A stretch of DNA of 9,262 nucleotides, from the IMG/VR virus record IMGVR_UViG_2695420643_000022; one strand, written 5' to 3'. Both the position numbers and the translations under genes were made by a program. Source of the stretch: a virus. Taxonomy: Duplodnaviria > Heunggongvirae > Uroviricota > Caudoviricetes. Below, in pieces: positions 5,686 to 6,796 of the stretch. Each line of letters begins with the position of its first letter. The first letter of the stretch is position 1. The notes beneath the pieces are model-generated. The model was given only the letters and a program-made list of their open reading frames with translations, was not told where the DNA came from and made no database searches.

Positions 5686-5715
5686 AATCTACAATTAAAA
5701 ACTGTTTTGTGTCAA
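5686..5715 (-). promoter_or_regulatory. Candidate sigma70 leftward early promoter (pL-like): -35 TTGACA, 18-bp spacer, -10 TAGATT
   Basis: Minus strand reads TTGACA-caaaacagtttttaattg-TAGATT. It sits just downstream of the terminator of the upstream operon and overlaps the 39-bp palindromic operator. Confidence 0.45.
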
Positions 5716-5729
5716 CAGTTTTTAATTGT
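5691..5729. promoter_or_regulatory. 39-bp palindromic operator (O-left): ACAATTAAAAACTGT - 9 bp - ACAGTTTTTAATTGT
   Basis: Perfect 15-bp inverted repeat arms (extendable to 16 bp). Nearly identical to the palindrome at 6725-6763, differing at one position per arm. Confidence 0.6.
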
Positions 5730-5739
5730 TGTTTTGGGC

Positions 5740-5762
5740 AAAAAAATCCCTCGAAAGAGGGA
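5740..5762 (-). terminator. Rho-independent terminator ending the regulator-antitoxin-toxin operon
   Basis: Minus strand: TCCCTC-TTTC-GAGGGA followed by TTTTTTT, about 20 nt after the toxin stop codon. Confidence 0.6.
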
Positions 5763-5780
5763 GTATGAAAATTGTTCAAC

Positions 5781-6068
5781 TCAGATAGAGAAGGGAAATT
5801 GTCGCCGAGAATGTGTCACGCTTACAATCTCAATGCTTGAAGCAGCTACTCTGTACAGGATTATGTAGTTAGGGTGGGTCACGATCTCTCTCAATCCAGA
5901 AACCCGTTCGCTTGGTGGATATAAGTACGGATGCTCAGATAGAGGTAATACCGATGTTTCAATGCGTATTTTTAGTCTACGTGCTGCCGGTGGGTTCTCC
6001 TTGGCGATGTAAGTTATGATCTGGCGCAAATCATCGCGAGCAGACGGTAGCCATAAAATGGGTAACAT
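5781..6068 (-). CDS. parE2: ParE/RelE-family type II toxin, 95 aa
   Basis: MLPILWLPSARDDLRQIITYIAKENPPAARRL...EIVTHPNYIILYRV...: typical ParE/RelE size and motifs. Its ATG overlaps the antitoxin stop (TAATG). Symbol by analogy to the E. coli O157 paaR2-paaA2-parE2 system, from memory. Confidence 0.7.
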   Translation of the reverse strand: MLPILWLPSARDDLRQIITYIAKENPPAARRLKIRIETSVLPLSEHPYLYPPSERVSGLREIVTHPNYIILYRVAASSIEIVSVTHSRRQFPFSI

Positions 6069-6259
6069 TACTCGCTCTTGTTAGTTACAGCAATTTGAGC
6101 AATAAGATTTTCCATTTCAGCCATTACCTCGTCATGTGGAATTGCGGGGCGAGTGTCTGCAAGGCTTGACGTTACTTTAGTGCGCAACCATTCGTTGTAA
6201 CTGTTTTCTTGTTCGGTAGTTTCGAATTCTGAAACTATCGGAGAAAGGGCTGTACCCAT
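6068..6259 (-). CDS. paaA2: Small antitoxin, 63 aa, PaaA2-like
   Basis: MGTALSPIVSEFETTEQENSYNEWLRTKVTSSLADTRPAIPHDEV...: matches my recollection of PaaA2 (EFET.EQENSYNEWLR motif, 63 aa). Strong SD GAGGAG; immediately upstream of and coupled to the toxin. Confidence 0.65.
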   Translation of the reverse strand: MGTALSPIVSEFETTEQENSYNEWLRTKVTSSLADTRPAIPHDEVMAEMENLIAQIAVTNKSE

Positions 6260-6286
6260 GGCATAACTCCTCTTCTTGTACTGTGG

Positions 6287-6688
6287 TCACGCCCGGCGGC
6301 TTTTTTGTGCCGCCAGCCACCTAGCAATGGTTTCTTCCATTGATTTTTTCTTGTCTTTGATTTCTTGAAGCATTTTTTCTTGGTCTTCCTCAGGAAACGC
6401 ACTAAAAGCTTGGAGCAGTTCGCGTTGGCGAGGACCAATTTTCATCGTGTCAGGGGTGAAAATTTGCTCACACTCTTCAGGAGGCAATAAAAACCAATGC
6501 AATGGATGCCCTGAAACCTCAACCAGTTTATCCAAACTTGAGGCTTTAGGTGTAGCCTTACCGCTGACCCATTGTTGAACAGTTTGTTGTGTCACACCAA
6601 TTCTACGGGCAAGCTCAGCCTGGCTCCATCCAGTTTCCTGAAGAAGCTTGCTGATTCTGTACATAGATACTTCTAGGGCGCTCATCAT
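6287..6688 (-). CDS. paaR2: HTH (XRE/DicA-like) transcriptional regulator, 133 aa; likely the CI-like repressor of this prophage and regulator of the toxin-antitoxin operon
   Basis: HTH segment SQAELARRIGVTQQTVQQWVSGK; C-terminal region resembles DicA; first gene of the three-gene operon. A -10-like TAAAAT lies 6 nt upstream of the ATG, suggesting a leaderless transcript as for lambda cI from pRM. Confidence 0.6.
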   Translation of the reverse strand: MMSALEVSMYRISKLLQETGWSQAELARRIGVTQQTVQQWVSGKATPKASSLDKLVEVSGHPLHWFLLPPEECEQIFTPDTMKIGPRQRELLQAFSAFPEEDQEKMLQEIKDKKKSMEETIARWLAAQKSRRA

Positions 6689-6796
6689 TATTCAATTTTA
6701 CAGGTAAATACTGTTAAAAGCATCACAATAAAAAACTGTTGATTGCATACAGTTTTTTATTGTAGGCTTTGCTTATAGTTTTTAGAGGAGGGCAAA
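6689..6796. promoter_or_regulatory. Divergent promoter/operator region between the regulator gene and the Cro-like gene
   Basis: 108-bp AT-rich intergenic region; TATAGT (6774-6779) upstream of SD AGAGGAGGG and ATG 6797 on the plus strand; TAAAAT just before the regulator ATG on the minus strand; contains the O-right palindrome. Confidence 0.55.
6725..6763. promoter_or_regulatory. 39-bp palindromic operator (O-right): ACAATAAAAAACTGT - 9 bp - ACAGTTTTTTATTGT
   Basis: Perfect 15-bp inverted repeat arms, same length and near-identical sequence to O-left at 5691-5729. Confidence 0.6.

Follow-up and report, generated by a model that had tools for sequence, protein, structure and literature searches.

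Two palindromes around a toxin-antitoxin operon as the probable OL and OR operator clusters of a lambdoid prophage immunity switch

The window studied here, a 9,262-nucleotide stretch of viral DNA (IMG/VR record IMGVR_UViG_2695420643_000022), carries a toxin-antitoxin operon bracketed by two near-identical palindromes, which raises the question of what these palindromes do. From the sequence, they are very likely the OL and OR operator clusters of a lambdoid prophage immunity switch, bound by the repressor that the prophage encodes. The window represents a lambdoid prophage of the E. coli O157 type, next to yccA; by inference it is CP-933M, a paralogue of CP-933P (the carrier of paaR2), and not CP-933P itself. 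The genes and the site that matter here are the following:

5781..6068, minus strand: ParE-family toxin, 95 aa (Pfam PF05016, E 2.9e-17)
6068..6259, minus strand: PaaA2-family antitoxin, 63 aa (Pfam PF21217, E 5.6e-19; PDB 3ZBE PaaA2, E 1.4e-20)
6287..6688, minus strand: predicted immunity repressor, 133 aa (N-terminal HTH like that of 434 repressor, C-terminal domain PaaR2-like)
6797..7069, plus strand: YdaS-family Cro-like gene, 90 aa (Pfam PF15943, E 8e-10; recognition helix AQQTVWQW)
7046..7063, ydaS/ydaT junction: YdaT (CII-like) box TTGATT-N6-AATCAA, read from sequence

As in PaaR-PaaA-ParE operons, the ParE-type toxin is preceded by a PaaA2-family antitoxin that has no DNA-binding domain. 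A RecA-stimulated autocleavage domain (LexA/S24) is usual in lambdoid repressors, although not universal; a Pfam search of the 133-aa repressor gave HTH families only and no Peptidase_S24 domain, and published work describes PaaR2 as likewise free of an S24 autocleavage domain. The best match of the repressor HTH is the 434 repressor (E 3e-5), with helix 3 reading QQTVQQ against QQSIEQ in 434 and all three Gln positions of the 434 helix retained. Over the C-terminal 98 aa the protein is 42% identical to PaaR2 (E 1e-20), and the N-terminal DNA-binding region cannot be aligned. The "PaaR2-like regulator" of the first-pass annotation is thus a fitting name for the C-terminal part, but not for the DNA-binding domain, which resembles that of 434 repressor; the operators, too, bear no relation to those of PaaR2. 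YdaT closely resembles the crystallised CP-933P YdaT from end to end (8BT1, E 1.4e-82; 3C4R, E 3.9e-83), and the motif of the YdaT box was defined by footprinting (PMC9986795).

Direct reading of the sequence gives, in both 39-bp palindromes, perfect 15-bp arms ACAAT(T/A)AAAAACTGT around a 9-bp spacer. The OL palindrome (5691-5729) is ACAATTAAAAACTGT-TTTGTGTCA-ACAGTTTTTAATTGT and the OR palindrome (6725-6763) is ACAATAAAAAACTGT-TGATTGCAT-ACAGTTTTTTATTGT, with fully complementary arms in each. The repeat finder returned 5691-5729 and 6725-6763 as a direct pair (D6, 79% over 39 nt, with mismatches confined to the spacer except for the W position) and also as an inverted pair (I1, I7, I21); in its output, inverted/direct repeats of 41 nt, with 995 nt between them, flank the regulator-antitoxin-toxin operon. 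The string ACAATWAAAAACTGT has four perfect matches in the 9262 bases, all of them palindrome arms, and the longest perfect hairpin arm of the window measures 16, while in 200 first-order Markov simulations the longest arm averaged 8.0 and never exceeded 11. Sequence reading, repeat finder and simulations therefore all bear out the two near-identical palindromes first reported. Each arm had further been described as an ACA-N9-TGT element; the arms are indeed found as 15-bp sites of this form, but their number had been underestimated, a third OR site (6700-6714) having been overlooked. The window holds six ACA-N9-TGT sites, five of which fall within the OL and OR control regions. The palindrome layout is mirrored alike at OL and OR, with the ACAAT ends facing outward and the ACAGT ends inward. 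A third OL site was sought on both flanks of 5691-5729, and none was found there.

On the right, the palindrome lies where it had first been placed, inside the divergent promoter region of the regulator and the Cro-like gene. As in lambdoid immunity regions, three ACA-N9-TGT sites (6700-6763) stand between the HTH regulator on the minus strand and the YdaS-family gene on the plus strand:

6695..6723, minus strand: predicted PRM, -10 TAAAAT (6700-6695), weak -35 at ~6723-6718, assigned by eye
6700..6714: OR3-like weaker site (ACAGGTAAATACTGT), within the predicted PRM spacer, next site 25 bp away
6725..6739: OR2-like site (ACAATAAAAAACTGT), between the -35 of PRM and the -35 of PR
6739..6768, plus strand: predicted PR, -35 TTGATT (6739-6744), 18-nt spacer, -10 TAGGCT (6763-6768)
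6749..6763: OR1-like site (ACAGTTTTTTATTGT), filling the -35/-10 spacer of predicted PR

Predicted PR is directed into the ydaS-like and ydaT genes. Its match to consensus (7/12) is under the promoter-scan threshold, and it was assigned by register and eye: its register relative to the palindrome equals that of PL, and repeat I1 runs on to CTA/TAG. Across 21 OR alleles, T1, A2 and T6 of the PR -10 are invariant. We prefer TAGNNT at 6763-6768 as the PR -10 because these three bases are kept and because it mirrors PL; another candidate, TATAGT at 6774-6779, was rejected, as A2 is missing in some alleles and the hexamer has no -35 partner. Six bases separate the PRM -10 from the repressor ATG, its A (6688) being the 7th; this geometry, found also in the PaaR2-type locus L002, suggests that the repressor mRNA is probably leaderless. 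The location of the OR3-like site in the predicted PRM spacer would make autorepression possible.

On the left, the scan confirmed both elements that had first been placed there, an operon terminator and a leftward promoter over the palindrome:

5686..5715, minus strand: predicted PL, -35 TTGACA (5715-5710), 18-nt spacer, -10 TAGATT (5691-5686)
5691..5705: OL site 1 (ACAATTAAAAACTGT), filling the -35/-10 spacer of predicted PL
5715..5729: OL site 2 (ACAGTTTTTAATTGT), directly upstream of the PL -35
5740..5762, minus strand: intrinsic terminator of the regulator-antitoxin-toxin operon, stem-loop 5747-5762, T-run 5740-5746

The terminator follows the parE stop codon and precedes OL, and its stem is kept among same-immunity loci. 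PL is a leftward 10/12 match to the sigma-70 consensus in the promoter scan; among 30 distinct OL alleles the -35 never changes, and the -10 is constant in 29. A TTGACA- or TTTACA-like hexamer lies between two operator repeats at the PL position in 7/7 loci (six heteroimmune types and L048). Predicted PL is directed toward ydfA, ydfB, dicF (DicF at 4058-4109), dicB, the exonuclease gene and int. The leftward operon had been taken for one of recombination and excision; it does hold those genes, but not those alone, since the division inhibitors DicF and DicB also belong to it.

Conservation was read from two sets of loci. In seven loci retrieved by homology, none of the five sites varies save for a 1-bp deletion in one locus, the OR2-like site being the same in all seven, and the OR spacer and OL flanks vary. 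OL site 1 is kept among same-immunity loci between variable flanks (with T5G, W6 and A7T changes and a 1-bp deletion as its variants), and the OR3-like site is kept save for position 6 (T/G/C) among loci chosen without regard to OR3. The IMG/VR loci were picked by palindrome pattern, so that conservation of OR1 and OR2 in that set is partly by construction; in 42/42 stretches that carry one palindrome, a second site pair lies 1034-1037 bp off, or 683 bp where the toxin-antitoxin genes are internally deleted.

These comparisons bear on what the unit of binding is. Each 39-bp palindrome might be a single symmetric operator for a tetramer or higher oligomer, as the mirrored layout and the 9-bp spacer shared by both palindromes would suggest, together with the octameric state of PaaR2 in solution (PMC8630535), whose C-terminal domain is conserved in the window repressor. 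We consider this unlikely. The third OR site at 6700-6714 is solitary; in L048, OL site 2 is exchanged for an oppositely oriented site (ACAATAAATAACTGT), which breaks the palindrome, and the regulator is still present; in eight loci OL site 2 stands 25 and not 24 bp from site 1, which makes a 10-bp spacer; the sites of the related L005 immunity type are direct repeats; and the OR spacer sequence varies freely, the -35 excepted. The alternative already raised at the outset, that each palindrome is two adjacent dimer sites, appears from the sequence to be the better description, with the 15-bp site as the probable functional unit and not the 39-mer. Each arm would then be one pseudo-symmetric operator, ACA(A/G)T-N5-A(C/T)TGT, bound by a dimer of the 133-aa repressor, and the YdaS-family Cro-like protein (6797-7069) probably binds the same sites.

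If these are immunity operators, they should go with their repressor. Among the related prophages compared (the first-pass annotation had named a motif search of such prophages as a check), every one with this repressor keeps both site clusters, and both are exchanged jointly in heteroimmune cassettes at the same position. Six such cassettes occur there, each with its own repeats common to its OL and OR. OL and OR of the same locus share 8-43 comparison-window pairs with at least 12/15 matches, against mostly 0-3 and at most 11 when OL is set against the OR of another type. In each of four aligned toxin-carrying immunity types, the recognition helices of the repressor and the Cro-like protein are alike: TQQTVQQW/AQQTVWQW in the window, SYLSQLMSGR/SYLSQMASGR in the PaaR2 type, TQGAVSH/TQGMVSH in L006 and, as a looser match, QQSVQK/QQVVSR in L005. 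That both clusters are kept with the repressor, and replaced jointly, independently supports the reading as an immunity repressor.

Two further explanations carry little weight. That the palindromes act as an RNA hairpin or terminator, or as a DNA cruciform, and not as protein-binding sites, is hardly credible: a scan does list 5691-5729 as terminator-like on the plus strand (a 16-pair stem followed by TGTTTTGG), but the stem has just 3 G-C pairs, the operon already has a G+C-rich terminator at 5747-5762, the start sites predicted for PL (about 5679, minus strand), PR (about 6775, plus strand) and PRM (6688, minus strand) would leave both palindromes untranscribed, the same element lies within a divergent promoter region, where termination would be senseless, and heteroimmune loci have direct repeats or unrelated palindromes there that track the repressor type. 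We give just as little credence to the repeats being termini or recombination sites of a mobile cassette that brought the toxin-antitoxin genes into the prophage: they do flank the regulator-antitoxin-toxin operon, and published work suggests that toxin-antitoxin genes were inserted into an immunity region, but two of the six heteroimmune cassettes have no toxin-antitoxin genes (L013, with a LexA-like CI, and L014) and show the same OL/OR repeats around the repressor alone, both repeats are kept in loci where the toxin-antitoxin genes are internally deleted, four different operator sets accompany the same toxin-antitoxin family, and the swap junctions lie left of OL (~5677) and at the ydaS/ydaT junction, so that the unit swapped encloses repressor, cro and operators, not the toxin-antitoxin genes alone.

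The operator reading is also favoured by experiments on the sister prophage. Work on CP-933P by EMSA, DNase I footprinting and gfp fusions to PR, PRM and PL (Jurenas et al. 2021, PMC8630535) established that PaaR2 (CI-like) and YdaS (Cro-like) footprint operators in the paaR2-ydaS intergenic region, that PR, PRM and PL are each repressed by both proteins, that similar operators and an active promoter (PL933P) lie beyond the toxin-antitoxin genes, and, by 5' RACE and N-terminal sequencing, that the paaR2 mRNA is leaderless. The window resembles CP-933P in gene order and families (ParE, PaaA2-family antitoxin, regulator C-terminal domain, YdaS, YdaT), in its flanks (ydfA/DUF1391 on the left, ydaT on the right), in operator repeats at the same two positions, in a PL-like promoter past the operon terminator, in a -10 six bases before the repressor ATG and in a YdaT box at the ydaS/ydaT junction. 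It differs in that PaaR2 has an atypical HTH, unrelated in sequence to the 434-like HTH_3 of the window repressor, in the recognition helix of the Cro-like protein and the C-terminus of the antitoxin, in its repeats (GTTTAGTAA-type in CP-933P against ACA-N9-TGT 15-mers here) and in the number of OL sites (three reported there, two here). PaaR2-type operators (GTTTAGTAA-like) are absent from the window. Among the loci compared, L002 is of the PaaR2 type (its regulator begins MQKKE and its PaaA is identical to PDB PaaA2 over the aligned stretch); its repeats, TTTAGT/ACTAAAC, occupy the same two positions as OL and OR of the window and resemble the ACAATWAAAAACTGT sites at background level. Who binds the sites, in which order and with what effect on the promoters we infer from this paralogue, which has another DNA-binding domain and other operators. 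By that analogy and by covariation, the initial proposal that the regulator is the prophage immunity repressor, with it and/or the Cro-like protein acting at both regions, appears to be right.

Among classical phages, 434 is the closest solved HTH relative, similarly with a recognition helix common to repressor and Cro (Gln-Gln-x-x-x-Gln), half-sites that start with ACAA or ACAG, three OR sites between divergent genes and a second cluster at OL. In contrast, its operators are 14 bp (ACAA-N6-TTGT) against 15 bp (ACA-N9-TGT) in the window, where the repressor carries a small PaaR2-type C-terminal domain in place of the LexA/S24 autocleavage domain and is co-transcribed with a toxin-antitoxin pair. 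A literature search on the operator 15-mers and the 434 operator strings returned nothing relevant, and the 434-type operators were therefore read from phage HK446 (434 immunity), whose OR and OL have the ACAA-N6-TTGT form. Given 15-bp sites against 14-bp operators, the 434 analogy for base contacts is no more than suggestive. With lambda, the window shares a tripartite OR with sites ~24 bp apart, an OL that lies past the terminator of the repressor operon, accessory genes on the repressor transcript (the toxin-antitoxin pair here, rexAB in lambda), a repressor mRNA that is probably leaderless and a CII-like activator site downstream of cro; lambda operators are 17 bp and of unrelated sequence, OL and OR are ~2.4 kb apart against ~1.0 kb here, and the window repressor lacks the RecA-sensitive domain. 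In the E. coli K-12 cryptic prophages, DicA/DicC (Qin) and RacR/YdaS/YdaT (Rac) also involve a repressor that silences a neighbouring operon (ydfABC-dicF-dicB-type division inhibitors, or ydaS-ydaT), but with other repressor families and operators and with no toxin-antitoxin pair in the repressor operon.

This immunity type is present in 511/5426 complete E. coli genomes (~9%, O157:H7 included), with low diversity (440/511 at least 99% identical). An exact-pattern scan of GTDB representative genomes gave no match to the 39-mer, the E. coli representative evidently being without this prophage. No phage of the isolated-phage collection has this immunity region; the collection yielded only a conserved PL leader (5600-5692) and distant relatives of the repressor and Cro. 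In phage phi467 the N-terminal domain is 54% identical, yet the intergenic region has no ACA-N9-TGT array.

Altogether, we propose a switch with three OR sites spaced 24-25 bp apart, in which OR1 would lie in the PR spacer, OR2 between the two -35 elements and the weaker OR3 in the spacer of the repressor promoter, with two OL sites bracketing the PL -35. Repressor on OR1/OR2 and OL would turn off both the rightward ydaS-ydaT-replication operon and the leftward ydfA-dicF-dicB-exonuclease-int operon, and the repressor-antitoxin-toxin operon would remain on under repression; competition by the Cro-like protein for the same sites would make the switch bistable. The PaaR2-like C-terminal oligomerisation domain may join OL to OR over a distance of 1034 bp, by looping of the kind seen with lambda CI. 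A broader picture, in which a 434-like Gln-Gln-x-x-x-Gln helix reads ACA(A/G) half-sites on a 15-bp operator, the C-terminal domain closes a loop of ~1 kb that holds the repressor gene together with the toxin-antitoxin pair, and the PaaR family is one of non-SOS-inducible loopers, is conceivable, although we hold it to be doubtful.

The regulatory logic itself is already known, from CP-933P (published in 2021, PMC8630535) and as a classical feature of lambdoid phages; with the arrangement already proven by experiment in the sister prophage, the finding is correct but ordinary. What is now given for this immunity type is the operator sequence, the site map and a promoter model. The predicted repressor, co-transcribed with a ParE toxin, would keep DicF and DicB, both division inhibitors, in check. 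Several specificities exist among PaaR-type repressors, with one common C-terminal domain; since a matching Cro helix and a separate operator set go with each specificity, they are natural swap partners for tests of DNA recognition and heteroimmunity. If the broader picture is true, DNA-binding domain, Cro helix and operators would be swapped as one module, on an oligomerisation scaffold that stays constant.

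The two palindromes bracket the toxin-antitoxin operon of a locus with the following features:

6287-6688, minus strand: helix-turn-helix regulator (133 aa)
6068-6259, minus strand: PaaA2-family antitoxin
5781-6068, minus strand: ParE toxin
5747-5762 (stem-loop) and 5740-5746 (T-run), minus strand: G+C-rich intrinsic terminator
left of the terminator, minus strand, in order from right to left: ydfA (DUF1391), ydfB, DicF sRNA, dicB, exonuclease gene, integrase gene
4058-4109, minus strand: DicF sRNA (Rfam RF00039, 77 bits)
6797-7069, plus strand: YdaS-family Cro-like gene
7053-7478, plus strand: ydaT

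In O157:H7 and related strains, a prophage inserted next to yccA matches the window at 99.9-100% identity. The window is distinct from the published paaR2 locus of the O157:H7 cryptic prophage CP-933P, where the regulator starts with MQKKE and the operators consist of GTTTAGTAA-type repeats. The exact CP-933P type is represented by another locus, L002, whose antitoxin is identical to crystallised PaaA2 over the aligned stretch. O157:H7 genomes contain two paaA-parE places and the literature locates the second copy in CP-933M, so that, by inference, the window is the CP-933M paralogue. Elsewhere in the window, DicF lies upstream of dicB in the leftward operon, and a 24-nt inverted repeat (3885-3908/4028-4051, 92% complementary) pairs the region just 3' of DicF with that just upstream of the dicB start, and the polycistronic transcript could be processed at a long-range stem formed by this pairing. 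Within the 823-aa exonuclease gene, a low-complexity linker rich in Q/N/E/P is encoded by three tandem repeats of 21 nt (TTGTTSNNNTTCTGGCYC-like, 1789-1856). GGGGCTT(N4-5) repeats, direct and inverted (repeat-finder entries D1 and I2), cluster at 8398-8439 and 8654-8706 in a gene that leaves the window at its right end; the annotation calls it hypothetical, and a gene for an ATP-binding protein lies downstream of it. The clusters are possible iterons of a replication origin inside an O-like initiator gene.

Direct reading and a repeat finder agree on the two 39-bp palindromes of the first-pass annotation: ACAATTAAAAACTGT-TTTGTGTCA-ACAGTTTTTAATTGT at 5691-5729 (the left cluster, OL) and ACAATAAAAAACTGT-TGATTGCAT-ACAGTTTTTTATTGT at 6725-6763 (in the right cluster, OR), listed as both a direct and an inverted pair, with perfectly complementary 15-nt arms in each (D6, I1, I7, I21). 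Within the window, the arm motif ACAATWAAAAACTGT is matched perfectly only by the four palindrome arms. A chance origin is excluded: the longest perfect hairpin arm is 16 nt, against a mean of 8.0 and a maximum of 11 in 200 first-order Markov versions of the window. That annotation had overlooked a weaker third ACA-N9-TGT element, ACAGGTAAATACTGT (OR3, 6700-6714), whose start is 25 bp away from that of its neighbour; the window contains six ACA-N9-TGT sites, and five fall in the two AT-rich control regions.

Related prophages were compared in two samples: seven same-immunity loci fetched by homology, and 42 IMG/VR stretches from a pattern scan, which were picked by the palindrome and are therefore unbiased only for the partner cluster, OR3 and flanks. 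Site pairs recur in both. In the homology-fetched loci, all five 15-mers are unchanged save for a 1-bp deletion in one; variation is seen in the OR spacer past its TTGAT and on both sides of OL. Every IMG/VR stretch has a second pair, 1034-1037 bp away except in two loci where an internal deletion in paaA-parE reduces this distance to 683 bp; OR3 varies at position 6 only. Among the changes at OL are a spacer of 10 bp, T5G and, in locus L048, a flipped second site that destroys the 39-bp palindrome. A strict single 39-bp operator is weakened by these 10-bp spacers, by the flipped site and by OR3 standing alone; the constancy of the 15-mers against variable spacers and orientation shows that the conserved unit is the 15-mer, at 24-25 bp spacing, in line with the earlier suggestion of two adjacent dimer sites per operator. 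In the two shortened loci (prophage contigs L030, 7487-8208, and L039, 5136-5857), a 351-bp deletion fuses the paaA start to the parE end, and the repressor and both operator clusters are still intact; thus, the switch outlives the toxin-antitoxin pair.

Six heteroimmune cassettes occupy one slot between a conserved GGGGCGGGGTGGGT leader at left and ydaT at right: the window type, the PaaR2 type, L005, L006, L013 (a LexA-like CI) and L014, the last two lacking toxin-antitoxin genes. Scored as the number of 15-nt window pairs that agree at 12 or more positions, OL-OR similarity within a locus was 43 (window), 39 (PaaR2 type), 26 (L005), 21 (L006), 8 (L013) and 26 (L014), versus mostly 0-3 (maximum 11) between types, and every type reads operator, -35, operator, -10 in the direction of the predicted leftward promoter (PL). 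The palindromes as part of a mobile cassette fail as an explanation, since this architecture exists without toxin genes, both repeats are kept where these are deleted, and the module boundaries take in repressor, cro and operators. The leader (~130 nt, about 5545-5677) separates the predicted PL start from ydfA, is conserved in all heteroimmune cassettes and several isolated phages (matches H52-H61), has no Rfam match and is possibly nutL-like. Its similarity ends at the OL edge (about 5677-5692), a break that marks where the immunity module recombines on its left side.

Three promoters are predicted around these operators:

PL, minus strand: -35 TTGACA 5715-5710, 18 nt, -10 TAGATT 5691-5686 (10/12 consensus match)
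PR (rightward), plus strand: -35 TTGATT 6739-6744, 18 nt, -10 TAGGCT 6763-6768 (same register as PL)
PRM (the repressor gene's own), minus strand: -10 TAAAAT 6700-6695, six bases ahead of the repressor ATG at 6688

OL1 and OR1 occupy the predicted PL and PR spacers, OL2 and OR2 abut the -35 elements, and T1, A2 and T6 of the PR -10 are invariant across 21 alleles. OR3 lies within the predicted PRM spacer, with the OR2 centre near -44. An RNA hairpin or terminator fails as a reading: the stem is nearly all A-T, a proper terminator stands only 20 bp away, the palindromes fall outside the transcripts of the adjacent predicted promoters, and the same element also sits inside the divergent promoter region.

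The regulator had been called PaaR2-like, which holds only for its C-terminal part (42% identity over 98 residues, higher in the last 40); its N-terminal domain is a classical HTH_3, closest among solved structures to phage 434 repressor (E 3e-5), with helix 3 QQTVQQ against QQSIEQ. In 434 complexes, ACAA bases are read by Gln28, Gln29 and Gln33. Glutamine is present at all three positions here, as would be expected if the repressor read ACA(A/G) directly. In HK446, a phage with 434 immunity whose repressor shares its N-terminal 64 residues with that of 434, the OR and OL operators are 14-bp ACAA-N6-TTGT; the sites in the window likewise start ACAA or ACAG but measure 15 bp. Repressor and Cro-like recognition helices are similar within each of the four toxin-carrying immunity types aligned, as in 434 repressor and Cro, an argument for shared binding sites. 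A conserved C-terminal motif, ELLQxFxAFPEEDQEKML..KKESME..ARWLAAQK.RRA, is common to the PaaR-type repressors (L002, L005, L006, window), whose N-terminal DNA-binding domains are of at least four unrelated kinds; for each kind, the adjoining Cro-like protein has a matching recognition helix. One E. coli prophage (L012, 1605-2409) has a hybrid immunity region with two tandem PaaR-type regulators upstream of a single paaA-parE pair, 434-like then PaaR2-like (adjoining OR), and weak OL/OR similarity.

In CP-933P, the 97-bp region between paaR2 and ydaS is shifted and footprinted by PaaR2 and by YdaS, either of which represses PR and PRM; PRM is activated when PaaR2 is low, and paaR2 mRNA is leaderless. 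Beyond the toxin-antitoxin genes, PL933P has operators of a similar kind (OL1-3), and either protein represses it ~100-fold; PaaR2 is an octamer in solution without a RecA-sensitive peptidase domain (Jurenas et al. 2021, PMC8630535). The predicted PRM has the geometry of the leaderless paaR2 (L002: GATAAT, six bases, ATG). By analogy, repressor would occupy OR1/OR2 and OL first, silencing replication genes on one side and the dicF-dicB-recombination-excision operon on the other; it may thereby stimulate PRM and would repress itself through OR3, with the Cro-like protein competing for the same sites. With its conserved PaaR2-type C-terminal domain, the repressor could plausibly also bridge OL and OR, which lie 1034 bp from each other. 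The CII-like activator YdaT recognises TTGATT-N6-AATCAA, located where ydaS ends (PMC9986795). An exact match, TTGATTCATGAAAATCAA (7046-7063, TTGATT-CATGAA-AATCAA), covers part of the ydaT start codon in the last stretch of the ydaS-like gene, and YdaT of the window closely resembles the crystallised protein along its whole length (8BT1, E 1.4e-82), so a PRE-like promoter and input are expected.

The operator 15-mers had no match in the literature searched and this immunity type occurs in 511 of the 5426 complete E. coli genomes, which makes the specific operator map a modest addition to known biology. Control of both operons by one regulator and/or the Cro-like protein, as the first-pass annotation proposed, is the published conclusion for the sister CP-933P locus, and for the window such control is probable, supported by homology to that tested system and by covariation.
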